A stretch of DNA of 64,000 bases from Pseudomonadota bacterium. Its GTDB lineage: Bacteria > Pseudomonadota > Alphaproteobacteria > CACIAM-22H2. The notes under the pieces are model-generated. The model ran no database searches. It saw only the letters and a program-made list of their open reading frames with translations, and was not told the origin of the DNA. This document shows, in pieces, positions 21,859 to 49,859 of this stretch; positions within the stretch are counted from its first letter, which is position 1; every line of letters begins with the position of its first letter. Where the stretch lies: assembly GCA_041178225.1 (NCBI GenBank), contig JBEGVV010000086.1:472-64471 (forward strand). Direction: 5' to 3'. A program made the translations under genes and the position numbers.

Positions 21859-22067
21859 GATTCGATCGTCCGGGAAGGGAACGGGGCGCGACGCCCGTTC
21901 TGGAGCGAGCTCGCAGCATCGGGTTTCGCCACGCGGCGCGCCGCCGAACTTCGACCAATGCGGAGATATCTCGCCCCTTGCTGTAGCGCGACGCGTGCTG
22001 CTGTCGGAGCGTCCGGCCCGCCTCGGCCAGCGGGGATCCCGGAAGCCTTGGAAACAGGCGAAACCCG

Positions 22068-23744: not shown

Positions 23745-24116
23745 ATGCGAAGCGATGGCCGCGGCGCCTCGATGCGCCCTCGCGTCTTCCGTCCCGGCGA
23801 GATCGTCTTCCTCGAGGGCATGCACGGCGAGGAAGCCTTCCTCCTGAAGGAGGGCGCGGTGGAGATCTTCCGTTCGTCCGGGTCGGGAGAGGTGGTCCTC
23901 GCCACGATCACGCCCGGGGACATCTTCGGGGAGATGGCGCTCGTCGACTCCCGGCCGCGTTCGGCGAGCGCGCGCTGCGTCGGCGTCGTCGTGGCGACCC
24001 CGATCCCGCGCCGGCTCCTCGAGCAGGAACTCGCGCGGAGCCCGATGATCGTGCGGGCCCTCGTCGAGCGCTACATCCGCATCATCCGCGACGCCAATCG
24101 CCGGCTGGGGGACTGA
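23745..24116 (+). CDS. stand-alone cyclic-nucleotide-binding (cNMP) domain protein
   Basis: canonical phosphate-binding cassette FGEMALVDSRPRSASARCV; 123 aa; 1 nt before CHASE2 cyclase start. Confidence 0.8.
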   Translation: MRSDGRGASMRPRVFRPGEIVFLEGMHGEEAFLLKEGAVEIFRSSGSGEVVLATITPGDIFGEMALVDSRPRSASARCVGVVVATPIPRRLLEQELARSPMIVRALVERYIRIIRDANRRLGD

Positions 24117-24117
24117 C

Positions 24118-26373
24118 GTGACCATTCGCAGCTTCGCCGCCGTCCTTCGCCGCGGCATATCGGTCATCGTGCCGAGCGTCCTGCTCGTCCTCGTCCTCGT
24201 CCTGCGCCAGGCGGACCCGGGCGACGTGCTCACCGATTTCCGCAATCGCGTCTTCGACCTCTACCAGCGCCTCGAGCCGCGTGCCCAGTCGGACGCGCCC
24301 GTGCGGATCGTCGACATCGACGACGAGACGCTGGCGCGGCTTGGCATCCAGTGGCCATGGCCGCGCACGATCCTCGCGCGCATGACGACCGCGCTCGCCG
24401 AGGCCGGCGCCGCGGCGATCGTCTTCGACGTCGTCTTCGCGGAACCCGATCGCACGTCGCCGGCAAGCGCCGCCAGGATCTGGAACCTGCCCGAGGACGA
24501 CGTCGAACTGCGCGCGAGGCTCGAGGCCATTGCCGACCACGATCGCGTCTTCGCCGAGGCGATCGCCGCGGCCGGCAACGTCGTGACCGGCTTCGCCCTG
24601 ACGCCCGACAGGACGGCCGCGCGACCCCTGCCGCGCGGTGGCTTCGCCGTCGCGGGAGACGACCCGCGGGAATTCCTGCGCGGGCGCTATGCCGGGGCGG
24701 TGACGACCCTGCCGGACCTCGAGCGGGCCGCGGCGGGCAACGGCTTCATGAACTTCGCCCCCGGGACGGATCTCGTGGTCAGGTCCGTCCCGTTGCTCCT
24801 CGCCTCGCAGGATGGCCGGCTCCATCCGAGCCTGGTCGCGGAGGCCTTGCGGGTCGCGCAGGGTGCCCGCACCTCGATCGTGAAGTCGTCCGGAGCGAGC
24901 GGCGAGACGGCCTTCGGCGCGCGCTCGGGCATCAACCAGGTCAAGATCGGCCAGTTCGTCGTCCCGACCGACGCGCAGGGCGGCATCGTCGCGCATTATG
25001 CGCGCCGCCGGGACGGGCTCTACGTCCCCGCCTGGAAGGTGCTCGACGGGGCCGCGGACGCGGCGGAATTCGATGGCGCCATCGTCCTGGTCGGCACGTC
25101 GGCCGCCGGGCTGCGCGACCTGCGCCCATCTCCGATCGATCCGCTCATGCCCGGCGTCGAGGCGCATGCGCAGGCGCTCGAGCAGATCCTGCTCGGGCAC
25201 TTCCTGTCGCGTCCGGACTGGGCGGATGGCGTGGAATGGCTGACCACGCTGGTCCTTGGCGGCGCGATGATCGCGCTCCTCGCGACGGTCGGCGCCCTCG
25301 CGTCCGCCCTCGTCGGCTTCGCGGCGGTCGGAGGCATCATCGTCGCATCCTGGTACTGCTACCGCGAGATATTGTGGCTCTTCGACCCGGTCTTCCCGGC
25401 CGCGGCGTCGCTCGCCATCTACCTGTCGGGCTCCCTCATCGGCTACCTGCGCACCGAGGCGGAGCGCAAGCAGGTGCGTGGCGCCTTCTCGCAGTACCTG
25501 TCGCCGGACCTCGTCGAGCGGCTGGCGCGCGATCCGTCGTTGCTGCGCCTGGGCGGCGAGACCCGGAACCTCACGCTGATGTTCTGCGACGTCCGCGGCT
25601 TCACGTCGATCTCGGAGCGGTTCAAGGCCGATCCCCAGCGGCTTACCCAGCTCATCAACCGGTTGCTCACGCCGATGACCGAGGTGGTCCTCGAGCGCCG
25701 GGGGACGATCGACAAGTACATGGGCGACTGCATCATGGCGTTCTGGAACGCGCCGCTCGACAACCCGGCGCACGCCGTCGATGCCTGCGCCTCGGCGCTC
25801 GCCATCCAGTCCTGCCTCGCCGACCTCAACGCGGAGCTCGCGCGCGAGGCGTTGGCCGCCGGCGAGAAGCACCAGGACCTTGCCGTCGCGATCGGGATCA
25901 ACACCGGCGACTGCGTCGTCGGCAACATGGGATCGCGGCAGCGCTTCGACTACTCGGCGCTGGGCGACACCGTGAACCTGGCGTCGAGGCTGGAAGGGCA
26001 GTCGCGCGCCTATGGCGTCGACATCGTCGTGGGTTCCTCGACCCGCTCCGCGGCCGGGGGGCTCGCGGCGATCGAGCTCGACCTCATCGTCGTCAAGGGC
26101 AAGAGCGAGCCCGAGAGGATCCACGCTCTCCTCGGCGGCGAGGACGAGGCGCGCACGCCGGCGTTTCGCGACTTCGCGGCGCTGCACGACAGGATGCTCG
26201 CGGCCTATCGCGGGCAGGCCTGGGACGAAGCGGTCGAGATCTCGGCGCGCTGCGCCGCCGCCCGGCCGACCCTGTCCGCGCTCTACGCGATGTACGAGAA
26301 GCGCATCGCCCAATACCGGGCCGAACCGCCTGGCAGCGACTGGGACGGCGTCTTCGTCGCCAGGAGCAAGTGA
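24118..26373 (+). CDS. CHASE2-sensor class-III adenylate cyclase (membrane, periplasmic CHASE2 + TMs + cyclase domain)
   Basis: N-terminal TM, ~330-aa CHASE2-like region, 3 TM, then LTLMFCDVRGFTSISE...IDKYMGDCIMAFWNAP...GINTGDCVVGNMG (metal Asp and substrate Lys suggest adenylate specificity). Confidence 0.85.
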   Translation: MTIRSFAAVLRRGISVIVPSVLLVLVLVLRQADPGDVLTDFRNRVFDLYQRLEPRAQSDAPVRIVDIDDETLARLGIQWPWPRTILARMTTALAEAGAAAIVFDVVFAEPDRTSPASAARIWNLPEDDVELRARLEAIADHDRVFAEAIAAAGNVVTGFALTPDRTAARPLPRGGFAVAGDDPREFLRGRYAGAVTTLPDLERAAAGNGFMNFAPGTDLVVRSVPLLLASQDGRLHPSLVAEALRVAQGARTSIVKSSGASGETAFGARSGINQVKIGQFVVPTDAQGGIVAHYARRRDGLYVPAWKVLDGAADAAEFDGAIVLVGTSAAGLRDLRPSPIDPLMPGVEAHAQALEQILLGHFLSRPDWADGVEWLTTLVLGGAMIALLATVGALASALVGFAAVGGIIVASWYCYREILWLFDPVFPAAASLAIYLSGSLIGYLRTEAERKQVRGAFSQYLSPDLVERLARDPSLLRLGGETRNLTLMFCDVRGFTSISERFKADPQRLTQLINRLLTPMTEVVLERRGTIDKYMGDCIMAFWNAPLDNPAHAVDACASALAIQSCLADLNAELAREALAAGEKHQDLAVAIGINTGDCVVGNMGSRQRFDYSALGDTVNLASRLEGQSRAYGVDIVVGSSTRSAAGGLAAIELDLIVVKGKSEPERIHALLGGEDEARTPAFRDFAALHDRMLAAYRGQAWDEAVEISARCAAARPTLSALYAMYEKRIAQYRAEPPGSDWDGVFVARSK

Positions 26374-26386: not shown

Positions 26387-27655
26387 TCAGGCGTCGACCT
26401 CGACTTCCGAGCGAGGGAGGCCGACGCAGGCGAGGCACGAGCCGGGGGCGATGTCCGCGCCCGGCTTGCCTGCGTAGCCGACCTCGCCGCGCCGCACGGC
26501 GGTCGTGCACGAGCCGCAATTGCCGGCGCGGCAGCCCGAGTCCATGGCTATCCCCGCGGCCTCGGCCATCTCGAGGATGGTCGCCGCGCCGTTCCAGGCC
26601 ACGCGCTTGCCCGATCGCGCGAACACGACGGCGAGCTCGCCGGCCGGCGCGGGCGCGGTGGCGGCCGGCGGGGCCGCACCCTTCACCGAGGCGGGGCCGA
26701 AGGCCTCGTGGTGGATTCGCCCGGGCTCGACGCCCGCCGCGCCGAGGCCCTCCACCACCGACTTCATCATCGGCGGGGGGCCGCAGAGGTAGAAATGCGG
26801 CGACGCCATGTCGCCGACGACGCGCCGGATCAGGTCGACGCTGACGCGTTCGGCATGCTGGAAGCGCTCGCCGGGGGCCTCGCCCGGCTCGGGGTCGCTG
26901 TAGCAGACGTTCATGCTGACGTTGGGGTTGCGCGCGGCGACCGCCGCGAGGTGGTCCGCCATCGCGTGCTCGGCGCCGTTGCGCACGCCGTAGAAGAACC
27001 AGACCGCGCGCCGCGCGTCGGCGTCGACGATCGCGTTGAGCATGGACAGGACGGGCGTCAGGCCGACGCCGCCGCCGATCAGGACGACCGGCGTCGTGTC
27101 GGCGGGGTCCAGCCAGAACGCGCCCGACGGCGCGCGCACGTCGACGATGTCGCCGACCTCCAGGTCGTCGTGGAAGAAGCAGGAGGAGACGCCGGGCGGG
27201 ATCTCGGGCTTGCCGGGGGGCGAGCCGACGCGCTTGATGGTCACGCGGAAATACTCGGCGCGCGGGGCGTCCGACAGCGAATAGCAGCGCGTCACGGGCT
27301 TCGGCTGCCCCGGTATGTTCAGCTTGAAGGTCAGGTACTGGCCGGGATTGAAGCCCGGCAGCGGGCGGCGGTCGTGGGGCTCGAGGTAGAAGGACCGCGT
27401 GTCGCGTGCCTCGAGCACCTTGCGCGCGACGACGAACTTGCGGAACCCGTCCCAGGTGCGCTCCGCCTTCTCGCGCTCGCGCGCGCGACGCTCGGCGATC
27501 TCGGCCACGCGGGCGGAGAGCAGCGCCCGCTCGGCCTCCGCGCTGCGTCGCGCGGTCCGGGTTGCCTCAACCTCTCGCCAGCCGGCGACGGCAAGCCTGG
27601 CGCCAAGCCCGGCGAGGAGGAGCGATGCCGCGGCGGGCAGCAACGTGTCGAGCAT
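26387..27655 (-). CDS. membrane-anchored FNR-type oxidoreductase: TM anchor + FAD-binding + NAD(P)-binding + C-terminal plant-type [2Fe-2S] ferredoxin
   Basis: N-terminal TM; RCYSLS FAD motif; VLIGGGVGLTPVLSML NAD(P) motif; C-terminal CRAGNCGSCTTAV...C; GGAAGG RBS; 18 nt after OMP gene. Confidence 0.8.
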   Translation of the reverse strand: MLDTLLPAAASLLLAGLGARLAVAGWREVEATRTARRSAEAERALLSARVAEIAERRAREREKAERTWDGFRKFVVARKVLEARDTRSFYLEPHDRRPLPGFNPGQYLTFKLNIPGQPKPVTRCYSLSDAPRAEYFRVTIKRVGSPPGKPEIPPGVSSCFFHDDLEVGDIVDVRAPSGAFWLDPADTTPVVLIGGGVGLTPVLSMLNAIVDADARRAVWFFYGVRNGAEHAMADHLAAVAARNPNVSMNVCYSDPEPGEAPGERFQHAERVSVDLIRRVVGDMASPHFYLCGPPPMMKSVVEGLGAAGVEPGRIHHEAFGPASVKGAAPPAATAPAPAGELAVVFARSGKRVAWNGAATILEMAEAAGIAMDSGCRAGNCGSCTTAVRRGEVGYAGKPGADIAPGSCLACVGLPRSEVEVDA

Positions 27656-27673: not shown

Positions 27674-29191
27674 TCAGAACTTGATACGCAGCTCGGACCG
27701 GATCCCGAGCAGGTCGTTGTCGCGGTCGCGGCGCGCGGCTATGGCATCGGCGCGGAAGATGAGCGCGTTGGTGAGCGGAAGCTGGTACCTGATACCGGCG
27801 CCATATTGCGGGCCGCGGGCCGCGCGGCCAGCCTCGAAGGCGCCTTCGCGCACGTCGAGCCCGGCGATCTCGACGACGATCTGCTGGTCGAGCTCGAAGA
27901 GGTACTGGATCCCGAGGGCGCCGCCATAGGTGTTGTGCGCGCTGTCGTCGAGCTTCGGGAAGTTCGTCAATCCGTCTGTCTCGAACAGGATGCCCGTGTT
28001 CTTCAGGATCCCGCCGGCGCCGGGGTCGCGCGCCAGGGACTGCGGCCGGTCGAAGCCCGCGAACAGGTTGAAGTACGGCACGAGCGTCAGCGGCTTGTGG
28101 CTGATCAGGGAGTTTTCCAGAAGCACCGCGAAGCCGTCCGCGCTCTGCTGGCGATTGCGCTCGCGGTCCTGGCCGAAGGCGCCGACGACGCGGACGCTGT
28201 TCGACAGCCAGCCGCCATAGCGGCGCGTGAAGGAGATCGCCGCGCTGTCGTAGCCCTGCTCCGCGAGCTCGCGGCGCCCGTCCACGCGACCGATCCCGAA
28301 CTCCCAGTGCCCTTCGTTGGCGTCCACGAACAGGGCGGCGCCCATGATCCGGGCGTCCTTGTCCGCGAAGTCGCCCAGGGCGTTGCGCAGCGCCGGGCTC
28401 GAGACCTTGTTGAACCCGGCGAACACGGAGACGTCCATGTTCGATATGCCCAGCGTCCGGCTGTTGCGGCCAGCCTGCCCGAATGCGACGCCGGTGATCG
28501 CATCGTCCATCCATACGCCATTGTGGAAGACCAGCGGCATGAGGCCTGCCGCGAAGGGAATGTCGACGGTGCTGTACGTGCCGAACGCCCCGGACGCGAT
28601 GTTGCCGAGGTCGCCCTCGAAGAAGAAGGCGTCCACGTTGCCGTCCAGGGTCGCCTCGCCTCGGCGCCGGTCGTCCCCGGCGAACTCGTAGCGCGTGAAC
28701 TTTCCATTGCGGTCGAAGGGGCGGAACAGCGCGTGGAAGCGCTCGGTCGACGTGATCGCGAGGTCCGCCTCGAGGTTGAGGCGCGTCGCGACCTGCCCGA
28801 CCTCCTTGCTGCCCGTGTCGTTGAACGCCATCGCGGCGCGCCAGTCGCCGTACACGACCAGCGACGGGCTGGCGGGGTTCTTCGCCCCGAGGAAGTGATA
28901 GGAGGGAGGGAGCGGGCCCTCGCGGTAGAGCGGCCGCCCGATCTCGATGAGCGGCCGCGGGGTCTTCACCTCGCGCTTGCCGCCATAGATGTCGACCTGG
29001 CGTTCCGCGTCATAGGCGCCCGTGCCGTAGGACGGATCGGGCTTGAAGACGCCGGGGTCGTGCGGCACGCGCTCGACGCCCGGAGACATCGCGGGTTCCT
29101 CCTCGGCCGCGCGCGCGGGCGCGGCCGGGGCCGAGGCGAGCGCGGCGGCGACGAGGAGGGGAATGAAGCCGCTGCGAAGGTCGATGGTCAT
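27674..29191 (-). CDS. outer-membrane beta-barrel protein (porin-like, ~505 aa) within cytochrome operon
   Basis: signal peptide MTIDLRSGFIPLLVAAALASAPAAPARA; amphipathic beta-strand pattern; C-terminal ...SELRIKF; AAGGA RBS. Confidence 0.7.
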   Translation of the reverse strand: MTIDLRSGFIPLLVAAALASAPAAPARAAEEEPAMSPGVERVPHDPGVFKPDPSYGTGAYDAERQVDIYGGKREVKTPRPLIEIGRPLYREGPLPPSYHFLGAKNPASPSLVVYGDWRAAMAFNDTGSKEVGQVATRLNLEADLAITSTERFHALFRPFDRNGKFTRYEFAGDDRRRGEATLDGNVDAFFFEGDLGNIASGAFGTYSTVDIPFAAGLMPLVFHNGVWMDDAITGVAFGQAGRNSRTLGISNMDVSVFAGFNKVSSPALRNALGDFADKDARIMGAALFVDANEGHWEFGIGRVDGRRELAEQGYDSAAISFTRRYGGWLSNSVRVVGAFGQDRERNRQQSADGFAVLLENSLISHKPLTLVPYFNLFAGFDRPQSLARDPGAGGILKNTGILFETDGLTNFPKLDDSAHNTYGGALGIQYLFELDQQIVVEIAGLDVREGAFEAGRAARGPQYGAGIRYQLPLTNALIFRADAIAARRDRDNDLLGIRSELRIKF

Positions 29192-29210: not shown

Positions 29211-30992
29211 TCAGCGCACTTCGAAGGCGACGCTGTAGGGATGGATGTCGAGCATCCACTCGTTCATGGCCTGCTCCATCTCCCTCGTCGCCTTGACGAA
29301 CTTCATGAAGTAGATGGGCTCGGCCCGGCTGCGCATGCGCGCGGCGAGCCTGTACTTGCCGGGCTGCGAGAGCACCTGGGCGGGCACGGTGTAGTTCGCC
29401 ACGCGCGTGCCCAGGGGCGGGATGCTGCGCGCCTCCATCCTGATGCCAGGCGGATGGTTGAGTACCGTGGTCGGCACCGACGCGGGCCGGATGAATGGCC
29501 GCTGGTCGACGTCGAAGTTGATCGGCAGGTACATCTCGCGGTCCGTGCCCTTGACGTTCTGCGTCAGGAACTTGGTCTGCAGGTTGACCAGCTGGACGTC
29601 GCGCGGGACGCGCCCGGCGAGCACGTCGAGCGAGTGGATGTCGGCCATGTCGCCGTTCGAATCGACATAGCCGCTTTCCCACACGGTCCGGCCGTCGGGG
29701 GCCACGAGGGCGACGTTCAGCCAGATCTCCGGCTGTGCGCCCAGCGACCCGGACGGCAGGTTGTGGCCGCGATTGGTGTTGGTGATGCGATAGGAGAAGG
29801 AGAGCCCCTGGCCCGCCTTCGGCGCCGAGGCGAAGAACGGCCCGTCGAGCCTCGAGCCATTCTCCATCACCTTGCGGCGGAGCTCGCGCTTCTCCTCGAG
29901 GCGCACGAGGTTCTCCTCGACGATCTCGCGCGCTTCCTCGCGGTCGATGCGATCGCCCCAGGGCTCCGGGAAGCTCTGCTTGATCTCGCCGGACTCGACC
30001 TTGTCCTCGAACTCCGGCTTGCCCCAGCCGGCGCGGTGGTCGAACTTCAGCCAGTCGCGGATGTCGAACTTCGATGCCTTGGTGTTGATCGGGAAGATCC
30101 CGGGATGCGCGATCGGGTAGCCCGGGCCGTAGAAGGCGTGGTTGCTGTGGCGTCGGTTGGGGTTCACGGGCTTGCCGTTGACCACCGCGCTCGGTCCCGT
30201 GTCGTAGCCGTTGGCGACGCCGGGGGTCTTGCCCATGTGGCATTCCTGGCAGGTGGTGCCATCGGACATCGACGGGGAGGCACGGTACTGGTCCCAGACC
30301 ACCTCGAGCTTGATCCCCGGGTGGACGGCGACCTGGTGGCAGGAGACGCAGAACTCGGACTTCGAGATCTGGTCGAGCTTGAAGACGCCGAGATGGATCT
30401 TGTTGCCGCGCTCGCCCGGCCCGGTGGCGACGCGATAGCTGTCCTTCTCGGCGATCACCTCGCCAAGCTTCCCGCCTTCGCCCGAGCCCGTGACCGGCAC
30501 GTGGATGTCGCCCGGCACGACGCTGCGTTCGCCATTGGTCTTCGCGTACTGCTCCGAGATGCGGTGGCACGTGATGCAGGTGACGCCCTCGCGCGCGACC
30601 TCGCTGCGCTCCCATAGCGGACGCCAGCGCTCCTCGCCGCGCTGCGTGCCCACCTGCTGGTGGCAGCGCACGCAGAACCCGCCGATGGTGCCCGAGGACA
30701 GGTCGTTGATCGCCTGCTCGAACTTGTGGAACATCGGCGAGATCGACGCGTAGGCGTGGTTGGACGACGCCCACTCCGCGTAGATCTGGCCGTGGCAGGA
30801 CGCGCATTGCGCGGCGGTCGGATAGGACGTCTCCGCGAGCAGGTCGGCGTGCGGGTCCTTCTCGGTCGCCGTCGCCGAGGTCTCGGGCAGGGGCGCGAGC
30901 GCGCTCCCCACGACGACGCAGAACGCCAGCAGGCCGGCGGTCAGGAGCGAGAGGCCGATCCGCGATCGGCGCCGGAGCCCGTCATCTTGCAT
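29211..30992 (-). CDS. pentaheme c-type cytochrome (5 CxxCH in N-terminal 250 aa + 340-aa haem-free C-terminal domain), secreted
   Basis: CASCH, CVRCH, CITCH, CVSCH, CQECH; signal peptide; start overlaps decaheme gene end by 11 nt. Confidence 0.85.
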   Translation of the reverse strand: MQDDGLRRRSRIGLSLLTAGLLAFCVVVGSALAPLPETSATATEKDPHADLLAETSYPTAAQCASCHGQIYAEWASSNHAYASISPMFHKFEQAINDLSSGTIGGFCVRCHQQVGTQRGEERWRPLWERSEVAREGVTCITCHRISEQYAKTNGERSVVPGDIHVPVTGSGEGGKLGEVIAEKDSYRVATGPGERGNKIHLGVFKLDQISKSEFCVSCHQVAVHPGIKLEVVWDQYRASPSMSDGTTCQECHMGKTPGVANGYDTGPSAVVNGKPVNPNRRHSNHAFYGPGYPIAHPGIFPINTKASKFDIRDWLKFDHRAGWGKPEFEDKVESGEIKQSFPEPWGDRIDREEAREIVEENLVRLEEKRELRRKVMENGSRLDGPFFASAPKAGQGLSFSYRITNTNRGHNLPSGSLGAQPEIWLNVALVAPDGRTVWESGYVDSNGDMADIHSLDVLAGRVPRDVQLVNLQTKFLTQNVKGTDREMYLPINFDVDQRPFIRPASVPTTVLNHPPGIRMEARSIPPLGTRVANYTVPAQVLSQPGKYRLAARMRSRAEPIYFMKFVKATREMEQAMNEWMLDIHPYSVAFEVR

Positions 30993-32520
30993 CTTTCGTC
31001 ATCCGTGGCTTGAGCGCGTGGTTCTGGTGATAGGCGTGGCAGGTCAGGCAGCCATCCGGCGCCTTGCCCTGCTGGTGGCATGACGTGCAGGCCTCGATGC
31101 CGACCGGGACGAAGCCGGACGACGCGGGCTTGTCGCCTTGCAGGTGGCAGGACGCACAGGAACCGGCGCCGGGCATCGCGGCGACATGCGGGCGATGGTC
31201 GAAGCGGTGCAGTTGCCGCTGCGGCGCCGGCGATCGATTCCACGCGATGGTCCGTGGCCCGTCCGCGGGACCGGAGATGGCGTGGCACTTCAGGCACTGG
31301 CCAGGCCCGTCGGCGCCGAGGATCTCCGCGCGCACGGCCTCGAGGCGCTCCGCGTCGTCGTCGTCGGCCGGGCGCGGGCTGGCGGCGATCGCGTCGAGCC
31401 AGGCGCGGACGACCGGGTCGCCATGCGCAGGCCTCGCGTAGCGAAGCTCGAGCCCTTCGGCGCGCCATCCCGGCTGCGTGGCGCCACCGGGGGGCTCGTG
31501 CTCGCGGTTGCTCGCCCAGGCGCAGGCCGCCATCCGCGCGGTCTCGCCGGAGAGGCCGCGCAGGAGCCTCGCGCCGTCCCCGCCGAGGCGGCCGGCCGCG
31601 AGCGCCGCGATCGGCTCCGCGCCTTTGGCGACCATCGCGTCCGCGAGCTTGCGCAGCGGATCGGCATAGGCGGCCTGGTCGTCCGCCGCGGCACCGAGCA
31701 GGAACGCGAGCAGCGCGTTTGCAGGGTCGAGCGACACGGGCGAGGGGTCGGGCGCGTCGCCCGGGGGGCCACATGCCTCCGGCGCCTGCGGCGCTGGCTC
31801 GAGCTCGGGCCAGCGCATCACGACGAGGTCGCGGCGCGCGATGCCCTGGTCGTGGCATCCCGCGCAGGCCGCCTCGTAGCCGAGGGTCGCGACCGCACCG
31901 CCCTGCTTCTGCGGCTGGTGGCAGCCCAGGCATTGGCCGGCGGGGACGAACTCGGCGTTGCGCGGGTCGGCGAAGTGCTTCGAGATGTGCGACGCGTGGT
32001 CGAAGCTCGCCTTGCGGTCGCTAGCGGACGGATACCAGGGCGAGAAGGGCGGGTGGCCCGCCGCGAAGCCATGGAACTGGCGGGCGTGGCAGGACTGGCA
32101 CTGCGCGTCGGGCATGGCGCTGGCCGGCAGGCTCGCGCCGCGATGCTCGGCGTGGCACGCCACGCAGCTGGTCTGCGGCAGGTCCGCCCGCTTCTCGAAG
32201 ACGGCGTTGTGCGCGAGTGACTCGCGCCCGTCGAATCCATGGCAGGTGGTGCACGCGCCGTCGATGGCGTGCGGTCCGCCGGGCCGGAGCGCGGCGAGCG
32301 CCGCCGAGATCCATGCCGTCGCGCCGCGGCCATGCGCGGCATGGCAGGACGAGCAGCCTTCCTCGCCGAGGAAGGCTGCGTGCGACGGGGACAGGGGGCC
32401 AGCGTCGAGCGAGGAGGGAAGCCGCGCGTCGCGCGCGAAGCCGCCGGCGAGGATCACGACGAGCGCGAGGACGAGTGCCGCCGCAGCGAGCGCGATCCGG
32501 CCCCGGAGTTGCGCGTGCAT
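30982..32520 (-). CDS. decaheme c-type cytochrome (6 + 4 haems separated by ~185-aa haem-free insert), N-terminal signal/anchor
   Basis: Met at aa 341 of track ORF 30982..33540 followed by TM (IALAAAALVLALVVILAGG); CSSCH, CTTCH, CVACH, CQSCH, CLGCH, CAGCH ... CLKCH, CASCH, CTSCH, CLTCH; 512 aa. Confidence 0.8.
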   Translation of the reverse strand: MHAQLRGRIALAAAALVLALVVILAGGFARDARLPSSLDAGPLSPSHAAFLGEEGCSSCHAAHGRGATAWISAALAALRPGGPHAIDGACTTCHGFDGRESLAHNAVFEKRADLPQTSCVACHAEHRGASLPASAMPDAQCQSCHARQFHGFAAGHPPFSPWYPSASDRKASFDHASHISKHFADPRNAEFVPAGQCLGCHQPQKQGGAVATLGYEAACAGCHDQGIARRDLVVMRWPELEPAPQAPEACGPPGDAPDPSPVSLDPANALLAFLLGAAADDQAAYADPLRKLADAMVAKGAEPIAALAAGRLGGDGARLLRGLSGETARMAACAWASNREHEPPGGATQPGWRAEGLELRYARPAHGDPVVRAWLDAIAASPRPADDDDAERLEAVRAEILGADGPGQCLKCHAISGPADGPRTIAWNRSPAPQRQLHRFDHRPHVAAMPGAGSCASCHLQGDKPASSGFVPVGIEACTSCHQQGKAPDGCLTCHAYHQNHALKPRMTKDAR

Positions 32521-32681
32521 GCGGCGAGGGGCGCAGGGCGCATCGCCATGCGGGCATGTCCCGTCGGCCCGCGGCCCTCGTTCGCATGGGCGCCCCCACG
32601 CCACGGCGCGCCCGCAACGCCAGCCGAGGGGCGGCCGCTCGTAGCGGCTGCGGTCGTGGCGGAACTGGTCGCGCGAGCCGG

Positions 32682-33497
32682 TCATCCTGCGTACACGTGG
32701 ACGATGAGGGTGTGCCATGCCGCCATCACGAGGAAGGCGGTCGCCGCGGGCACGTGCACGAAGGTCCATGCGCGCAGCAGCGTCTGGAGCGCGTATTGCG
32801 CGTCCACGGCGCGCTTGTGCCGACAGATCTCGGCCAGCGCGTCGAGGTGCGGCCGCTCGTCGGCGGCGAGGAGCCTTTCGACCGCGGCGAGCCTCTGCCT
32901 TTCCCACGCCTCGGCGCCATGGCCACCAAGGACATGGCTGAGCGCGAAGCGCGGCCGCTCGAAATACCAGGCAAGGGTCTGCGCGTAGTAGGAACCCAGC
33001 GTCTCGTGGCCGGCCGCCCCGGCGGCCTCGACCAGCGCGTTCTCGGCCGCGGCGCGGAGCCTCGCCACCTCGCCGGGGATGCGCTCGTAGATCAGTTCCG
33101 GCCCGCTTCGCGCGAGGCGCGCGGGCAGGATCGCCTGCAGCACGTGCCCGGCGATCCCGGAGGCGACGACCGCGAGGAAGAGCACCGCGAGCGCGCGGTC
33201 GGCCGCGCCCGCCGGCCATGCGGTCCCGACATGGATGGCGTAGGCGCCGATCGCCGCGACGCCGACGATGACATGCACCGAGAGCCAGGCCGAGGCCCGG
33301 CCGAGGGGAAGCATGGGCAGGCGCCTGCGCACGCCGTAGATGGCGAGGGCTGCGACCATCGCCGCGAGGATCCAGCCCGTGGCGAAGTCGGGGTCGATGG
33401 TCGATGCGCGCCGCGTCGCGCGCCACGCCCCGAGCGCCGCGATCCCCGCCGCGGCGAGGATCCAGAGGCCAGCCGCGCGCCTCGACATCGCCCTCAT
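32682..33497 (-). CDS. integral membrane protein, 5 TM with conserved intramembrane His (possible di-haem cytochrome-b-type quinol-interacting anchor)
   Basis: 271 aa from MRAMSRRAAG; His in TM3 (SVHVIVGVAAIGAYAIHV), TM4 (GIAGHVL), TM5 (WHTLIVHV); ATGA overlap with upstream FeS gene; GGGGAG RBS. Confidence 0.6.
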   Translation of the reverse strand: MRAMSRRAAGLWILAAAGIAALGAWRATRRASTIDPDFATGWILAAMVAALAIYGVRRRLPMLPLGRASAWLSVHVIVGVAAIGAYAIHVGTAWPAGAADRALAVLFLAVVASGIAGHVLQAILPARLARSGPELIYERIPGEVARLRAAAENALVEAAGAAGHETLGSYYAQTLAWYFERPRFALSHVLGGHGAEAWERQRLAAVERLLAADERPHLDALAEICRHKRAVDAQYALQTLLRAWTFVHVPAATAFLVMAAWHTLIVHVYAG

Positions 33498-35182
33498 CGT
33501 CCCGCGCTCCCCGTGCCATGCACGAGCAGGTCCTTGCCACCGGTACGGCGCAACGCGTCCTGCGGGCAGGCGCGCACGCAGGCGGGGCCGCCCGGTTGCC
33601 CGACGCAGAGGTCGCACTTCGTCGCCTTGCGCACGGGCTTCCCCGCCTCGTCGACGACCGGCGCGCCCGACATGTCCGATATCTCGACCAGCCGGATGTT
33701 GTCGTAGGGGCAGGATGCGGCGCAGGTGCCGCACCCGATGCAGGTGTCGTCGTTGATCACGACGACGCCGCCGACCTCGTGGCGATGGATCGCGCCCGTC
33801 GGGCACCCGATCATGCAGACCGGGTCCTGGCAGTGCATGCAGGCATTCGCGACCATCCAGTGGTCGGAGACCGGTCCATGCCTCACGAAGCGCGGGTTGC
33901 CGTCATGCGTCGAGGCGCAGGCCCGCACGCAGTCGTCGCAGCGCACGCAGCGATCGAGGTCGATCAGCATCGTCTGCGTGCCGTTGATCCAGCGCTCGTC
34001 GACCATCCAGTCGACCAGCCCGTCCTCCTCGATGCGCCTTTCGGTCGCCAGCGCCGCTGGCGCGTCGCGCAGCCCCGGGAACACGTGCTTCTCGAGCACA
34101 TGGGCGGGGACGCGGAGCACGTCGACATGGCCGAGGGCGGCGAGGCTCTGCGACAGCCGGACCTCGCCGCCGCTCTTCCACGCCGCGTAGGTCTCGGCGA
34201 GGCCGAACTGGTCGCCGACGCCGAGATAGCTCACCGTGCGCCTGCCGCCGCCGACCGCGTGCGACAGCCTCGCGAAGCCGGAACGGACGAGGTAGATGCC
34301 GTCCGGCCGGCTGCCTTCCGCCGCGATGATCGGCTCGTCCGCCGCGTTCTCCTGGCCCGCGCCCTTGCTGCGCTTGAGCGCCACGTGCCAGTCGGCGTCG
34401 CCGTAGGTCTTGAACTTCACCTTCCCGGCGATCGCGGCCAGCGTCTCCGCGTCGAGGGAGGCGAAGAGCGGATGCGCCTGGAGATGGTTGAGCAGCGCGT
34501 TGCGGCGATAGTTCTCGTCGATCCGCCGCTTCCAGCCCGGGTCGAAGCGCCGGAGCTCCCGCAGCCCCTGCCAGCGTATCTCGAGCAGGCGCGCGCCGCC
34601 CTCCGCGAACACCGTGGCCGAGCGTGGCACGCGCCCGAGCGCGGCGAGCTCGCCGAATATGTCGCCCGCCTGGAGCGTGACGGTGCGGTTCCTGTCGAGG
34701 ACGCGCGGTATGTCCTGCAGGAACATGAAGGAGCGCGCGGCGTCCTCCGGCTTCAGTCGCGCGGCACGGCCGTCGAGGTCGCGCGCCTCGGGATGGGCCG
34801 GGCGGTTCCATGCGCGGGCGATGGTCTCGAGGATCCCCCGCGTCCGGGGCGCCTGGCGCCCGAGTTCCTCCCGCGGCAACCCCGGCGGCAGGACGACGCG
34901 CAGCGTGCCGTCGAGCACCAGGAAGGCAGAGTTGCCGTAGTCGCCCTCGCGGACCGCGATCGCGCCCGGGTCGAGGGAAACGATGCGCGCGTCGTTGCGG
35001 AGTATGCCGCGCAGCGGGATGCCGGGAGGGAAGTCCTCCGCCCGGATGGCGGCGATCTCCGGCCGCTCCATCAGGGCGTCCACGTCCGCGTCGGACATGT
35101 CCGCCCCGAATGGCACGTCCCACCGCGCGAGGCGACCTACGACCGTCGTTGGCCCGCCCGCGGACCTGCTTCCGGCGTTCAC
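33494..35182 (-). CDS. fusion protein: two cyclic-nucleotide-binding domains + NrfC/PsrB/DmsB-type four-[4Fe-4S] ferredoxin domain
   Basis: PBC FGELAALGRVPRSATVFA (canonical) and FGLAETY... (degenerate); CVRCDDCVRAC, CMHCQDPVCMIGCP, CIGCGTCAASCP, CDLCVGQPGGPACVRACP; GTG start at 35182 (alt ATG 35098). Confidence 0.82.
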   Translation of the reverse strand: MNAGSRSAGGPTTVVGRLARWDVPFGADMSDADVDALMERPEIAAIRAEDFPPGIPLRGILRNDARIVSLDPGAIAVREGDYGNSAFLVLDGTLRVVLPPGLPREELGRQAPRTRGILETIARAWNRPAHPEARDLDGRAARLKPEDAARSFMFLQDIPRVLDRNRTVTLQAGDIFGELAALGRVPRSATVFAEGGARLLEIRWQGLRELRRFDPGWKRRIDENYRRNALLNHLQAHPLFASLDAETLAAIAGKVKFKTYGDADWHVALKRSKGAGQENAADEPIIAAEGSRPDGIYLVRSGFARLSHAVGGGRRTVSYLGVGDQFGLAETYAAWKSGGEVRLSQSLAALGHVDVLRVPAHVLEKHVFPGLRDAPAALATERRIEEDGLVDWMVDERWINGTQTMLIDLDRCVRCDDCVRACASTHDGNPRFVRHGPVSDHWMVANACMHCQDPVCMIGCPTGAIHRHEVGGVVVINDDTCIGCGTCAASCPYDNIRLVEISDMSGAPVVDEAGKPVRKATKCDLCVGQPGGPACVRACPQDALRRTGGKDLLVHGTGSAGR

Positions 35183-35186: not shown

Positions 35187-36143
35187 TCACTTGTAGGTCG
35201 AGGGTGCCGGCAGCTTCGGGCCGACCTGGGCCGAGAGGTCCTTGCTGGCCAGCGCGTCGACGAACTTCTTCGCGTTGTCCTCGGTCGGACGGGCGAGCAG
35301 CGCGGCCGCCTCGGGGACCTGGCCCTTGACGCCGTCGATGGCGGCGCGGGCGGCGGACTTTATCTGGTCGAGCGTCTGCTGGAATTTCGGGTTCGTGGAC
35401 TTGCCCGTGGCCGCCGACGTCTGGACGAACGCGGCCGCGTGGCCCGTCAGGAACACGCGCGAAAGCTCCGCGACGCTCATCTGCGCGTTCTTCGTGACGT
35501 CGGGCGGGTAGAACCGATGCCGTACCGTGCCCTGCGAGTAGCGCACGAGCTCGAAGCTGGAGCCCGCCGGATGGCCGGCCGCCACCATCTTGGCGATCGT
35601 CTCCGCAGGCACGTCCGCGCGGCCCATGCCATGGCAGCTCAGGCAATTCTCCGCGACGTCGTAGAGGTTGGACGGCCAGATCATGCCCGCGGCCGCCGAC
35701 TTGCGGATCCGATCGGCCTTGTGGGTCGGGGACTCGGTCTCGCGCTTGGCTCCCGCGCCGTAGTCGTTGTGCATCGTCAGCCATGCCGACGCCTTGCCGT
35801 GGCAGCTCTCGCAGGACGGGCCCGACGTCGCGCTGGGCGCTGCCGAGGCGCTCGCCTGCGTGCTCGAGAAATGGCAGGCCGTGCAGACCTCGTTGCGCCT
35901 CATGTTCGTGTTGCCGCCGACCGCGGCGATGATGTCCTTCACCTCCGGCTTGCGGTGGATGTCCTTGAAGGAGGTCGCGTGCTTCGACGCTTCCCAGACG
36001 GCCGTCTCCGCCTTGTGGCAGTCGGCGCATTTCTGCGCCCCGACCATGAAGTGCTGGGCGCCGGCGACGGTGGCGACGAGGCTCGCGAGCCCGATGCCGG
36101 CGGCCAAGGCGGCACGCCTGAAGAAGTCGAACGCTACCATCAT
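35187..36143 (-). CDS. tetraheme c-type cytochrome, signal peptide
   Basis: CADCH, CTACH, CESCH, CLSCH; MMVAFDFFRRAALAAGIGLASLVATVAGA signal; GGGGGA RBS; first gene of operon. Confidence 0.85.
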   Translation of the reverse strand: MMVAFDFFRRAALAAGIGLASLVATVAGAQHFMVGAQKCADCHKAETAVWEASKHATSFKDIHRKPEVKDIIAAVGGNTNMRRNEVCTACHFSSTQASASAAPSATSGPSCESCHGKASAWLTMHNDYGAGAKRETESPTHKADRIRKSAAAGMIWPSNLYDVAENCLSCHGMGRADVPAETIAKMVAAGHPAGSSFELVRYSQGTVRHRFYPPDVTKNAQMSVAELSRVFLTGHAAAFVQTSAATGKSTNPKFQQTLDQIKSAARAAIDGVKGQVPEAAALLARPTEDNAKKFVDALASKDLSAQVGPKLPAPSTYK

Positions 36144-36239: not shown

Positions 36240-36782
36240 TCACGTCCGAACCGGTTCCATTGGCAGCGCTTGCGCGAAAGGAAGGCGCAGGGCGTCGCGT
36301 CCGGGCCTCGCGAAGGGGGTGCTGGCGCGGGGGCGCGCGGCGAGCCCGAGGTCCCAGCTGGCGCCGGCGTCCGGCCCGCCGACATCGCCGTCGCTCGCAA
36401 GGATCCTCGCGCAGGTCGATTCGGCGAGGACCTGGAGGAAATGCCGTCCGCGCACCCCCGCGCCGACGCGGCTTGCCCATAGGTTTATCTCGAGGCGTCG
36501 GGATGCAGCGGGGCGAAGGCCGCGCGCGACCTCCGCGTCGATGGCCGGCGCATCCGTGATGCAGAGTTCGCCTGGCGCGCCGATCCCGACGAGGTGCAGC
36601 GCCTCCAGGGCGTCGATCGCGAGCGCGGCGGCTATCGGCGGAAGCGGGTCCGCTTCGCCTTCGAGCAGGCGTAGCTCCACCTCGGGGCTGAGGCAGGCGA
36701 GCAATTCGCCGAGCCTCGGCAACGCGCGCGACGCGATGAGCAGTTCGCCGGGCATCGGAAGGCGGGCGATCGACGCATGCAT
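36240..36782 (-). CDS. hypothetical protein
   Basis: track ORF directly upstream (same strand) of cytochrome operon; GC3 ~80%; no recognisable motif. Confidence 0.35.
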   Translation of the reverse strand: MHASIARLPMPGELLIASRALPRLGELLACLSPEVELRLLEGEADPLPPIAAALAIDALEALHLVGIGAPGELCITDAPAIDAEVARGLRPAASRRLEINLWASRVGAGVRGRHFLQVLAESTCARILASDGDVGGPDAGASWDLGLAARPRASTPFARPGRDALRLPFAQALPMEPVRT

Positions 36783-39783: not shown

Positions 39784-40075
39784 GTTCGTCGCGCGCATCC
39801 TCGACGGCCTGCGCGATCGCGGCGATCATGCCGTCGTGCGACGTCCGCGCGGACGCGGCGCGGCGAACCTCCGAGACCAGCCGCCAGAACGCGTTGCGGA
39901 TCGCGACGGCGTCCCTGTCGCCCGCGGGCCCCGGCACCATCGCGTGGCCGAACGCGCGCTCCGCCGCCGCGGCGGCGGCCGCCGCGCGCGCGGCGCGCAC
40001 TGCCGCGGGCCGGTCGAGGCGCAGCGCCTCGCCGATCTCGTCCACGAGCTTCAGGATGTCCGCCCTCGTGGTCAC
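39734..40075 (-). CDS. small hypothetical protein translationally coupled to fliF (GTGA overlap), 113 aa
   Basis: VTTRADILKLVDEIGEALRLDRPAAVRAARAAAAAAAAERAF...; in-frame C-terminus of long track ORF 39734..42619. Confidence 0.4.
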   Translation of the reverse strand: MTTRADILKLVDEIGEALRLDRPAAVRAARAAAAAAAAERAFGHAMVPGPAGDRDAVAIRNAFWRLVSEVRRAASARTSHDGMIAAIAQAVEDARDELSELRDASRRNPAGSQ

Positions 40076-41814
40076 GCGCGCTGCGTGAGCCAGCCCCGGA
40101 TGACGGAGGCGGCTTCCTCGGGATGCTTGTCGACGATCTCGGTGATGCGCTTGAGCGCCGAGGACTGGACCTGGCCCTCGATCTTGTCGATGTCGATCAT
40201 CTCGGCCATCGCCTGCGCGCGCTGCGCCTGCAGCGCCTGCATCTCGGATTCGATCTCGGCCTTCATGCGCGCGACCTCGTCGACCTCCTCGGTCGGGACC
40301 AGGGCCCCGCCGCCGCCCTCGATGGCGAGCGCCGCGGTGTCGGGGGCCGGTTCCTCGAACATCTTGGCGACGATCGGGCGCACCACGAAGAGGACGACGA
40401 GGGCCACGACCGCGCCGAGGATCGCGACCTGCGAGACAAGCTTGATGTCCTCCTTGGTGAAGTCGAACATCCCCGGAGCGCGTATGTCCGGCAATTCCAC
40501 GGGGCTGAACGGCAGGTTCACGACCTCGACGCTGTCGCCGCGTTCCTGGCTGAAGCCGACGGCCGATCGCACGAGCCGCTCGATCGCCTTCATCTCGTCC
40601 TCGCCGCGCGGCTTCCACGACTGGGTGCCCGAAGCGTCCGCCTGGCGCACCCCGTCGACGAGCACCGCGACCGACACGCGGCGGATCGAGCCGGGATCGA
40701 TGCTCTCGCGGACCTGCGTGCGCGATACCTCGAAGTTCGTCGTCTCCTCGGTCCGGCGCTGGTTCTCGCTGCCGCGGGTGCCCTGCCCCTGTCCCTGGGC
40801 CTGCTGCTCGGGCGGGATGTTCCGCGCCACCGACGCGTCCTGGTCGCCGCGCTGCTCCGACTTCGTCGACGCCTCCTCGACGGTCTGGACGGAACGCTCG
40901 ACGCGGCCCTTCGGGTCGAAGGCCTCGGTCGTCCGGACGACCGCGGCGTACGTGACGTCCACGTTGACGTCCGCCCGCACCCGTCCCAGCCCGACATGCT
41001 GCTCGACGAGCCGCTCGACGGCCGCGCGCAGCCGGCGCTCGTGCTCCAGCTTGTGCTCGAGCACGGCCGTGGCCTGGCCAGCCGCGCTCTCGCCGTCGCC
41101 GCGGGCCAGCAGGTTGCCCTGCGTGTCGACGATCGAGACGCGGCCGGGCGAGAGGTTCTTCACGGCCGAGGCGACGAGGTGGCGGATGGATTCCACGCGC
41201 TGGCGCGCCGAGTCCATGTTCGCCCTGAACTGGACGACGACCGAGGCGCGCGTGTCCGGCGCCTGCTGGGAGAACAGCTCGCGCGTCGGGATGACGAGGT
41301 GGACCCGCGCGCTCTCGACGCCGGCTATCGACGCGATGGTGCGCGCCAGCTCGCCCTCGAGCGCGCGGATCTGGTTGATCTGGAACAGGTTGGTCGTGGT
41401 CGACAGCGGGTCGATGCGATCGAATACCTCGTAGCCCAGCGAGCCCTTGCTGGGCAGGCGCTTCTCGGCGGCCATGACGCGAAGCTGCGCGACGCGGGAG
41501 CGCTCGACCAGCACGGTCTGCCCGGCATCCGCCACCTGGTACTTCTCGCGGGCCTGGTCGAGGTGGCGGGCGAGGGCGGCGCTGTCCTCGGGGGAAAGCT
41601 TGGAGAAAAGCGGGACGAAATCCGGCGCCGTGAGGTGGACGGTCGATGCAGCCACGGCGACGACGATGGCGGCAAGCGACGCCACCAGCCCGACGAGGCG
41701 GAGCGGGCCCAGCTTGCGCAGCGCGTCGATCAGGCGTCCCGCGGGGCCCCCGTCGAGGCGCTCGGCGGCCTCCGGCGGTGATGCGGCAGCTATCGCGGTC
41801 TCGGCCAACGTCAT
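40072..41814 (-). CDS. fliF: flagellar M-ring protein FliF
   Basis: NQIRALEGELARTIASIAGVESARVHLVIP matches FliF core; 580 aa; C-terminal VIRGWLTQRA. Confidence 0.92.
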   Translation of the reverse strand: MTLAETAIAAASPPEAAERLDGGPAGRLIDALRKLGPLRLVGLVASLAAIVVAVAASTVHLTAPDFVPLFSKLSPEDSAALARHLDQAREKYQVADAGQTVLVERSRVAQLRVMAAEKRLPSKGSLGYEVFDRIDPLSTTTNLFQINQIRALEGELARTIASIAGVESARVHLVIPTRELFSQQAPDTRASVVVQFRANMDSARQRVESIRHLVASAVKNLSPGRVSIVDTQGNLLARGDGESAAGQATAVLEHKLEHERRLRAAVERLVEQHVGLGRVRADVNVDVTYAAVVRTTEAFDPKGRVERSVQTVEEASTKSEQRGDQDASVARNIPPEQQAQGQGQGTRGSENQRRTEETTNFEVSRTQVRESIDPGSIRRVSVAVLVDGVRQADASGTQSWKPRGEDEMKAIERLVRSAVGFSQERGDSVEVVNLPFSPVELPDIRAPGMFDFTKEDIKLVSQVAILGAVVALVVLFVVRPIVAKMFEEPAPDTAALAIEGGGGALVPTEEVDEVARMKAEIESEMQALQAQRAQAMAEMIDIDKIEGQVQSSALKRITEIVDKHPEEAASVIRGWLTQRA

Positions 41815-41931
41815 GCTCCGGGAAATATGCGTTCAATCCAGCGCGCCCGACGGGCCGTGCCCGGCCGGACTCATGCCCAACCGCGTCGCGGCGGGCCGAA
41901 GTTTTGGTCCGAATCCGAGCGAACCGCCCGC

Positions 41932-42948
41932 CTACTCGATCAATTCGTTCGCCTCGCCTTCCTCCGGCACCTCGATCACGCCGCGCGCGATCAGGTCCTT
42001 GGTGGTGGTGATGATGCGCTGCTGGGCTTCGTCGACGTCCTTGACCCGGACCGGTCCCATCGACGCCATCTCGTCCTGGAGCAGCTTCGAGGCGCGTTCC
42101 GACATGTTCGAGAAGAAGAGCTTGCGCAGTTCCTCGGATGCGCCCTTGAGCGCGATCGCGAGCGCGTCCTTGTCGACCTCCCGCAGGATCGCCTGGATGT
42201 CGGTGCCGTTGAGCTTCAGCAGGTCGTCGAAGGTGAACATGAAGCTGCGGATCTTCTCCGCGTCGCCGGGCGCCTGGTCGTCGAGGAAGCCCATGAGCCG
42301 GTTCAGGTTGGCGCGGTCGAGGGCGTTGAAGATCTCCGCGAGGTTCTCCGAGGGGTTGCGCTTCTGCGAGCGGCCGAGATTCGCCATGAACTCCGTCCGC
42401 AGCGTGCGCTCGACGTCCTCGAGGACCTCCTTCTGCACGTGCTCCATCTTCAGCATGCGCAGCACGACGTCGCGGGACATCTGGTCGGGCAGCAGCGCGA
42501 TGACGCGCGCCGCCTGCTCGGCCTTGATGCGCGACATCACCACGGCGACGGTCTGCGGGTATTCGTTGCGCAGGTAGTTCGCCAGCACCGTGTCGTTCAC
42601 GTTGCCGAGCTTGTCCCACATCGTGCGGCCCGCGGGGCCGGTGATGTCGTCCATGATCGACTGGACGCGGTCCGGGTCCATGATGCTCGCGAGGAGCCGC
42701 TGCGTCGCCTCGACGTTGCCGATCACCGATCCGCCCGAGGACATCTGGTTGGCGAACTCCACGAAGAGGCGCTCCACGACCTTCGCGTTGACGCTGCCGA
42801 GCGACGACATCGCCTGCGACAGCTCGCGGATCTCGTCGTCGTCGAGGAACGTGAAGACCTTCGCAGCGTAGTCCTGCCCGAGCGCGAGCAGCATGATCGC
42901 CGCCTTCGACGGGCCGCTGAGCGACCGGAAATCGTCCTTCACCGCCAT
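41932..42948 (-). CDS. fliG: flagellar motor switch protein FliG
   Basis: N-terminal SGPSKAAIMLLALGQDYAAKVF and C-terminal MGPVRVKDVDEAQQRIITTTKDLIARGVIEV torque helix; start at Met21 of track ORF. Confidence 0.88.
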   Translation of the reverse strand: MAVKDDFRSLSGPSKAAIMLLALGQDYAAKVFTFLDDDEIRELSQAMSSLGSVNAKVVERLFVEFANQMSSGGSVIGNVEATQRLLASIMDPDRVQSIMDDITGPAGRTMWDKLGNVNDTVLANYLRNEYPQTVAVVMSRIKAEQAARVIALLPDQMSRDVVLRMLKMEHVQKEVLEDVERTLRTEFMANLGRSQKRNPSENLAEIFNALDRANLNRLMGFLDDQAPGDAEKIRSFMFTFDDLLKLNGTDIQAILREVDKDALAIALKGASEELRKLFFSNMSERASKLLQDEMASMGPVRVKDVDEAQQRIITTTKDLIARGVIEVPEEGEANELIE

Positions 42949-43310: not shown

Positions 43311-43351
43311 GGTGGCCTGGCGTCATGATGGGCTGGGTCCCCTGGCTTCGA

Positions 43352-44719: not shown

Positions 44720-44770
44720 GCTTGTTGCGATGGAGGGCGTGGAATTGCCGCAAAGGAACCGCGCGCCGCC

Positions 44771-45490: not shown

Positions 45491-45500
45491 GGCCAATCCA

Positions 45501-47763: not shown

Positions 47764-47776
47764 CCTCGGGCGCGGC

Positions 47777-49563: not shown

Positions 49564-49568
49564 AGCAG

Positions 49569-49847: not shown

Positions 49848-49859
49848 CGCGGAGGGGCG

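Follow-up and report, generated by a model that had tools for sequence, protein, structure and literature searches.

Among the described conduits for extracellular electron transfer, MtrCAB, PioAB/MtoAB and the Geobacter Pcc systems draw on the quinol pool via CymA, ImcH or CbcL. In the Fre–MsrQ–MsrP and NOX/FRE systems, a cytoplasmic NAD(P)H-linked reductase feeds a two-haem b membrane protein, which passes the electrons on to a periplasmic or external acceptor. The subject of this analysis is the gene ptdE and the seven-gene ptd operon in which it lies, found in a 64,000-nucleotide stretch of DNA from a Pseudomonadota bacterium (contig JBEGVV010000086.1 of assembly GCA_041178225.1; this whole stretch is called the window below). 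PtdE joins a tandem of cyclic-nucleotide-binding (CNB) domains to a four-cluster iron–sulfur module, and the balance of probability tips slightly towards its being the regulated entry wire of a cytoplasm-to-outside electron conduit, with the CNB tandem as its input. Unlike the MtrCAB-type conduits, the Ptd system has its own NAD(P)H reductase, an iron–sulfur wire, a haem b protein and a second-messenger domain and, by analogy, it may be likened to a multi-subunit NADPH oxidase or a Fre–MsrQ-type system joined to a porin–cytochrome conduit. Its membrane protein, PtdF, shares bis-His H-x13-H pairs with the ferric reductase domains; the departures from Fre–MsrQ and NOX are that PtdF has five helices, not six, and that Ptd has an extra four-cluster sensor wire and multihaem cytochromes as acceptors.

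The operon was named ptdABCDEFG (penta/tetra/deca-haem) in a preprint on the marine Alphaproteobacteria UBA11136 (bioRxiv 10.1101/2023.11.21.568154), which reported the cluster from marine or saline habitats and its genes in nitrite oxidisers, placed PtdA in the NrfA cluster of orthologous groups (COG), noted the similarity of PtdC to the NO-dioxygenase flavohaemoprotein, and credited PtdE with two 4Fe–4S clusters. A full-text literature search found the fusion or the cluster described in that preprint only, and no mention of either in PMC11475568. The window gene is a PtdE ortholog in both architecture and gene context: it shares with the published PtdE the CNB and 4Fe–4S architecture, the seven partner genes, the haem counts of 4/10/5 and the cyclic gene order, and the agreement of the CxxCH counts (4, 10 and 5) with the tetra-, deca- and pentahaem proteins of the preprint supports the identity of the gene as ptdE. 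The two accounts differ in the number of clusters, two being listed in the preprint and four being indicated here by 16 Cys and the HycB alignment, and in habitat, since related loci were found here in metagenome-assembled genomes (MAGs) from lake, groundwater and soil as well. An earlier reading of the window, made from its letters alone (the sequence-only reading), had allowed that the fusion might prove to be a common annotated family with a known non-nucleotide function; common it is, and already named PtdE, but no function has been assigned to it. The window locus is, in this sense, another ortholog of an already named gene. What is added beyond the preprint is the four clusters, the natural PtdE–PtdF fusions, the translational coupling, the bis-His pairs of PtdF, conservation statistics for the phosphate-binding cassette (PBC) of PtdE, variants with FHA domains, and a wider range of habitats and phyla.

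The genes of the operon are, in window coordinates:

35187..36143, minus strand: ptdD, periplasmic tetrahaem cytochrome c (4 CxxCH, Cytochrome_C554 match)
33494..35182, minus strand: ptdE, 562-aa protein with the CNB-A/CNB-B tandem and a 4x[4Fe–4S] ferredoxin module (open reading frame, Pfam, homologues)
32682..33497, minus strand: ptdF, 271-aa membrane protein with five helices (conserved His, structure model)
30982..32685, minus strand: ptdG, membrane-anchored decahaem cytochrome c (10 CxxCH)
29211..30992, minus strand: ptdA, pentahaem cytochrome c with a large C-terminal domain (5 CxxCH)
27674..29191, minus strand: ptdB, putative outer-membrane porin of 505 aa (signal peptide, C-terminal Phe; role as given in the preprint)
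26387..27655, minus strand: ptdC, FAD/NAD(P)H reductase, anchored in the membrane and ending in a plant-type [2Fe–2S] domain (homology)

All seven ptd genes are thus present and tightly packed on the minus strand, in the order D-E-F-G-A-B-C. The GTG start of ptdE lies 4 nt past the ptdD stop codon, its own stop overlaps the ATG of ptdF (ATGA), and the ATG of ptdG overlaps the ptdF stop (again ATGA). That ptdE is a real gene follows from the high GC content at third codon positions, which stays at 0.90-0.97 in frame along the entire open reading frame (the window as a whole has 70-76% GC and the genome 72%), and homologues in the database search reach E = 0. The cytoplasmic tail that precedes the membrane anchor of PtdG carries four conserved Cys (WRCGR..GxPC.RGP..DGTC.....PC.PRR; 32530-32685, minus strand) and could be a metal, iron–sulfur or docking site facing PtdE and PtdF. 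PtdA is weakly similar to cytochrome c552 (5ze8), and PtdB has no match in Pfam. PtdC has an N-terminal hydrophobic anchor; its FAD/NAD module is closest to the flavohaemoprotein reductase module (E = 4e-52), and over its full length, the [2Fe–2S] domain included, it matches phthalate dioxygenase reductase. Scans for CRP boxes, promoters and terminators around the operon returned nothing above chance. Directly upstream of ptdD lies a 180-aa open reading frame (36240-36782, minus strand), in whose region the scans gave neither a promoter-like nor a CRP-box-like site.

PtdE itself can be divided as follows:

35093..35134, minus strand: conserved N-terminal motif RxxRWDxPFGxxM, residues 17-30 (family conservation)
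34475..35065, minus strand: CNB-A (residues ~40-236), made up of an eight-strand beta barrel and, after it, the B/C helices (Pfam, model, alignment)
34685..34891, minus strand: ~69-aa insert peculiar to the family (residues 98-166), within the beta4-beta5 loop of CNB-A (secondary structure from the model)
34604..34657, minus strand: PBC of CNB-A, residues 176-193, FGELAALGRVPRSATVFA (ungapped alignment to the PBCs of PKA regulatory subunits, PKA-R)
34073..34474, minus strand: CNB-B, residues ~237-370, with a degenerate, longer PBC (Pfam, model, alignment)
33527..33976, minus strand: four-cluster ferredoxin module, residues 403-552 (Cys motifs, Pfam, alignment to PDB entries)

In the iron–sulfur half of the protein, 16 Cys fall into the four motifs CxxCxxCxxxC (412/415/418/422), CxxCx4CxxxCP (448/451/456/460), CxxCxxCxxxCP (481/484/487/491) and CxxCx8CxxxCP (523/526/535/539), each Cys being kept in at least 95 of the 98 deep cluster representatives of the family (at least 97%). 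Pfam 4Fe–4S dicluster models, Fer4_11 among them, cover residues 442-545. HycB3 can be aligned over the whole of the C-terminal 150 residues (7qv7, E = 1e-17; HycB3 residues 6-161), and the module also aligns with HycB (7z0s, E = 4e-13), so that the four-cluster C-terminal module proposed by the sequence-only reading is borne out by both the Cys count and the HycB3 alignment. The same reading had called the module NrfC/DmsB/PsrB-type, and this does not hold. The Tat (twin-arginine translocation) motif RRxF is absent from all 217 family members, PtdE shows neither a Tat nor a Sec signal, and a long hydrophobic N-terminal stretch is lacking in 97 of the 98 cluster representatives. The NCBIfam scores lie below their cut-offs (DmsB 68 bits against 214, NrfC 50 against 378, with HybA and DsrO likewise below), and the nearest solved relatives are HycB and HydN. 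Neither a molybdopterin catalytic subunit nor an NrfD-type membrane subunit was found in the seven-gene operon. PtdE was accordingly rejected as a periplasmic NrfC/DmsB/PsrB subunit: it has no export signal, its scores are below cut-off, the partner genes are absent from the operon and its HycB/HydN relatives are cytoplasmic. A second candidate identity, that of a CRP/FNR-type transcription factor, was also set aside, because no helix-turn-helix domain was found in PtdE by Pfam and its C-terminus is the ferredoxin module.

PtdE is, then, a cytoplasmic four-cluster iron–sulfur wire. It resembles the ferredoxins HycB, HydN and HycB3 (7qv7, 7z0s) in its four aligned Cys motifs, its cytoplasmic location and its lack of an export signal, but whereas the HycB proteins are stand-alone wires of ~180-200 aa in formate hydrogenlyase and the hydrogen-dependent CO2 reductase (HDCR), PtdE has in addition a sensor region of 400 aa and a haem b membrane partner.

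The sensor region gives a Pfam cNMP_binding match of E = 2.6e-20 in three stretches, which resolve into two CNB domains when PtdE is scanned in three pieces. The match to CNB-A is split in two because of the ~69-aa insert between beta4 and beta5, the sequence of which is conserved and the model confidence of which is low. CNB-A carries the canonical PBC FGELAALGRVPRSATV, which in its wider form, FGELAALGRVPRSATVFA, needs no gap to align with the cassettes of PKA regulatory subunits that have cAMP bound, namely FGELALLYNAPRAATV of T. gondii and both FGELALIYGTPRAATV and FGEIALLMNRPRAATV of bovine RI-alpha. The key residues are G177, E178, R187, S188, A189 and T190, and of these Gly177, Glu178, Arg187 and Ala189-Thr190 stand in register with the PKA-R cassettes. 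With Gly-Glu...Arg-[Ser/Thr]-Ala at the canonical spacing, CNB-A has the signature expected of a PKA/CAP-type cNMP domain and may be classed as one from its residues. The loss of these Gly, Glu and Arg residues had been named in advance as the observation that would count against a functional cassette; they are present.

CNB-B is another matter. Its Pfam match covers residues 285-364 and its cassette (FGLAE...SLAAL) is ~11 residues longer and lacks the canonical Glu/Arg spacing in the alignment; position 348, an Arg in 60 of 98 relatives, is an Ala in this PtdE. The role of CNB-B is probably structural, or that of a relay. The Pfam segments and the PBC alignment agree with the one canonical and one degenerate domain that had been claimed for the N-terminal half.

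Conservation of the CNB-A cassette depends on depth. It is near-invariant among 119 close relatives and 80 genome-derived orthologues from several phyla, that is, among relatives of >47% identity, and every close relative has all of G-E-R-S/T. The 98 deep representatives keep the Gly in 95 cases, the Glu in 79 and the Arg in 82, and the full G-E-R-S/T set in 63/98. A variable PBC beside 16 retained Cys marks the iron–sulfur wire as indispensable and the nucleotide site as an optional add-on, as expected of a regulatory feature. Within the N-terminal motif, R20, W21, P24 and M29 are invariant.

The PtdE structure model was built with AlphaFold2 (AF2) from a 40-sequence alignment, and a Foldseek search with it gave, for its N-terminal half, the paired CNB-A and CNB-B domains of PKG and PKA regulatory subunits as best matches (E = 1e-17), at an overall identity of only 13-17%. 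PtdE is like the PKA and PKG regulatory subunits in its tandem CNB fold and in the length and key residues of the CNB-A cassette, and differs from them in its output, an iron–sulfur wire in place of a kinase inhibitor sequence, in the 69-aa insert and in the degenerate CNB-B. FHA (phospho-threonine-binding) domains have been fused repeatedly to PtdE relatives, many of which carry them, either at the N-terminus (P0130, P0143) or between CNB-A and CNB-B (P0137, P0182, P0202, P0233). These relatives indicate that the N-terminal half serves for signal input and is built in a modular way, and by marking it as a signalling module they strengthen the idea of a regulated electron-transfer subunit. Four further variants (P0157, P0167, P0180, P0199) have N-terminal extensions of at least 330 aa in which no Pfam domain was found.

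The fusion is widespread. A species scan, in which each species was represented by one genome, confirmed ptdE in the genomes of at least 579 species, spread over some eight phyla, the hosts being Alpha-, Beta- and Gammaproteobacteria, Verrucomicrobiota, Planctomycetota, Elusimicrobia, Nitrospinaceae/Nitrospinota and SAR324; the 80 best of these loci were used for all neighbourhood counts. Almost all hosts are MAGs, those assigned to Minwuia (L017, L022) among them, and the cultured Hwanghaeella grinnelliae Gri0909 (L062) is also a host. The best match to the window PtdE in the species scan is 67% identical, with no close species representative among the matches listed, and the homologues at the 80 fetched loci are 47-67% identical to it. 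A search of 1.84 billion cluster representatives (50% identity) gave 603 clusters that match PtdE at E <= 1e-30, with full-length matches down to ~32% identity. The best 120 database matches all have ~555 aa and the same CNB and ferredoxin architecture at 55-98% identity, and the names they carry include 'cyclic nucleotide-binding domain-containing protein'.

Searches with the window proteins (tblastn) found PtdD at 75 of the 80 loci, PtdF at 77 and PtdG at 74, and the order D-E-F-G on one strand is nearly always kept (~74-77/80, across the approximately eight phyla). PtdA and PtdB, found at 55-56 loci, and PtdC, found at 63, vary in position. The conserved D-E-F-G core identifies PtdE as a dedicated subunit of the ptd system. 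Among the variants, Hwanghaeella grinnelliae Gri0909 (L062) and one other locus (L068) have the order C-E-F-G-A-B-D, and four Planctomycete loci (L047, L063, L065, L070) the order C-D-E-F-G, preceded by A-B in the last three; ptdC directly adjoins ptdE or ptdD in both of these arrangements.

PtdE and PtdF occur as natural fusions in divergent lineages: P0041 (828 aa), P0126 (843 aa), P0149 (856 aa) and the truncated P0123. The three complete fusions have three different junction sequences, and P0041 sits in a ptd locus (L081, 8001-10487) between tetrahaem and multihaem genes. The PtdE C-terminus is joined in these proteins to the first membrane helix of PtdF, which places the C-terminus of the ferredoxin module beside the cytoplasmic N-terminus of PtdF. 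The multihaem neighbour of P0041 encodes a protein of 1217 aa, which may be a fusion of PtdG and PtdA.

PtdF has two H-x13-H pairs, H75/H89 and H248/H262, which do not vary within either of two sets of sequences, of 38 and 30 members, and lie on predicted long helices. The AF2 model of PtdF, with a predicted local distance difference test score (pLDDT) of 88.9, consists of five long helices and a cytoplasmic helical domain. Its sub-threshold Pfam matches are to two-haem families only (DUF4405 in 17/38 sequences, Ferric_reduct in 4/38 and Ni_hydr_CYTB in 3/38). With the N-terminus in the cytoplasm, H75 and H248 would face the cytoplasm and H89 and H262 the periplasm, in the geometry of two stacked haems b. 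This suggests that PtdF is a putative two-haem b transmembrane wire.

From these parts we infer an order of carriers and an outward direction of flow. PtdC, tethered to the membrane, would oxidise NAD(P)H and pass the electrons through FAD to its [2Fe–2S] cluster; the four [4Fe–4S] clusters of PtdE would carry them over ~40 A to the membrane, where PtdE would dock on PtdF and two bis-His haems b (H75+H248 and H89+H262) would take them across. Tetrahaem PtdD and the anchored decahaem PtdG, with 14 haems c in total, would then lead the electrons through the periplasm, and pentahaem PtdA, in or at the porin PtdB, would deliver them to an acceptor outside. Binding of cAMP or cGMP to CNB-A would change the engagement of the ferredoxin module with its partners, and flux would be tuned in this way. 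Gating by CNB-A is plausible. More tentatively, and short of an even chance, PtdE may be a second-messenger-gated valve, in which cAMP or cGMP at CNB-A, or phospho-threonine signalling in the FHA variants, switches the wire at PtdF.

Several points weigh against PtdE as the regulated entry wire of an outward conduit. The function of the ptd cluster 'remains completely unknown' in the words of the preprint (bioRxiv 10.1101/2023.11.21.568154). The direction of electron flow and the donor role of PtdC are drawn from gene content and analogy only, and a profile search of PDB sequences with PtdF gave no match. The PtdE model has a mean pLDDT of 64, with the iron–sulfur half below 50, and is uninformative on how the CNB and ferredoxin parts pack. 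In about 30% of the deep lineages another residue stands in place of the PBC Glu or Arg, with every Cys retained, from which it follows that nucleotide sensing is dispensable for the core function. Lastly, the rate at which class III cyclases occur at ptd loci (see below) may, by our estimate, not exceed chance, the phyla concerned being rich in cyclases.

The alternative that fares best accepts the same cytoplasmic wire and supposes that the CNB tandem no longer senses nucleotides, serving instead as a scaffold for docking or dimerisation, with PtdC or those portions of PtdF and PtdG that face the cytoplasm as examples of partners, or binding some other small ligand. CooA, NtcA and CprK use the CNB fold for other ligands, and the trypanosome PKA-R, a protein that also appears among the Foldseek matches of PtdE, uses it for nucleosides. 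The degeneracy of CNB-B throughout the family, with no Arg in this PtdE, would fit such a scaffold, as would the Glu and Arg replacements in deep lineages just described; the 69-aa insert and the invariant RW..P motif would likewise make family-specific surfaces with no PKA counterpart. What speaks against it is that the CNB-A cassette of this PtdE, and those of all relatives above 55% identity, match the cAMP-bound PKA-R cassettes over their full length and gap-free, and that G-E-x8-R-[ST]-A-T is kept so strictly from phylum to phylum, which would be difficult to account for if no cyclic phosphate were bound. We regard a non-sensing scaffold as rather improbable, though it deserves to be taken seriously.

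Less probable again, and in our estimate distinctly unlikely, is a conduit that runs inwards, taking up electrons from an external donor, or one that serves periplasmic nitrogen-oxide chemistry at PtdA, in which PtdE would serve cytoplasmic ferredoxin-type chemistry, not NAD(P)H oxidation. The preprint's placement of ptd genes in nitrite oxidisers, of PtdA in the NrfA COG and of PtdC beside the NO-dioxygenase flavohaemoprotein would favour this, and the reductase module of PtdC was indeed closest to flavohaemoprotein in the present searches. Yet in two-haem proteins of the kind seen in ferric reductases and cytochrome b561, electrons move outward from cytoplasmic reductants, and no energy-coupling subunit for an uphill reduction of NAD(P)+ was seen in the cluster.

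The possibility that PtdE is a periplasm-facing NrfC/DmsB/PsrB subunit of a quinol-linked reductase, controlled by cAMP from a CHASE2 cyclase, is effectively refuted: it could draw on the sub-threshold matches to DmsB, NrfC, HybA and DsrO, on a CHASE2 cyclase that lies, together with a stand-alone CNB protein, 7 kb away, and on four alphaproteobacterial loci that share the convergent position of the cyclase, but those scores are far under their cut-offs, there is no Tat signal and no molybdopterin or NrfD-type partner in the cluster, cyclic nucleotides are cytoplasmic and so unfit for a periplasmic sensor, the PtdF fusions put PtdE on the cytoplasmic face, and few ptd loci have a cyclase.

The genes of this neighbouring region are:

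24118..26373, plus strand: class III nucleotidyl cyclase of the CHASE2 type, in convergent orientation to ptdC
23745..24116, plus strand: stand-alone CNB protein of ~115-125 aa with the PBC FGEMALVDSRPRSAS, directly upstream of the cyclase (start at 23745 or 23772)

The cyclase lies 7.1 kb from ptdE, and both it and the stand-alone CNB protein are present as the sequence-only reading had described them; as evidence for a cyclic-nucleotide input to PtdE, this proximity turned out to be weak. A class III cyclase occurs within the fetched flanks of only 9-10 of the 80 ptd loci, and cyclase linkage was for this reason rejected as a family-wide feature. The loci that bear one comprise four alphaproteobacterial loci with the convergent arrangement of the window, three from Planctomycetes, one from SAR324 and one fragment at a locus edge. 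The cyclase has neighbours of its own (the CNB gene and the FecR-like and outer-membrane-type open reading frames), so it looks like a separate module. It is possible that the CHASE2 cyclase is the signal source in the window's lineage, as opposed to a feature of the family. Named from reading of the translations only, its further neighbours are an outer-membrane beta-barrel/TPR-like open reading frame at 20449-22254 (minus strand) and a FecR-like secreted one at 21987-23705 (plus strand).

On the far side of the ptd operon, a flagellar gene cluster (window 40072-51108) was identified from reading of the translations only:

40072-41832, minus strand: FliF-like
41932-43290, minus strand: FliG-like
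43352-44794, minus strand: FliI ATPase-like
45468-46292, plus strand: FlgG-like rod protein
50002-51108, plus strand: FliM-like open reading frame

If the CNB tandem of PtdE does gate the wire, electron flow would be under direct second-messenger control instead of control through transcription, and this control would span a conduit found in hundreds of species from oceans, lakes, groundwater and soil. To our knowledge, allosteric gating by a cyclic nucleotide would thereby be shown for an electron-transfer chain for the first time. The Ptd system would then represent a quinone-independent, NAD(P)H-driven and NOX-like extracellular electron route under post-translational nucleotide control, which would bear on the cycling of iron and manganese as well as on the high and so far unexplained ptd expression in oxygen-deficient zones.

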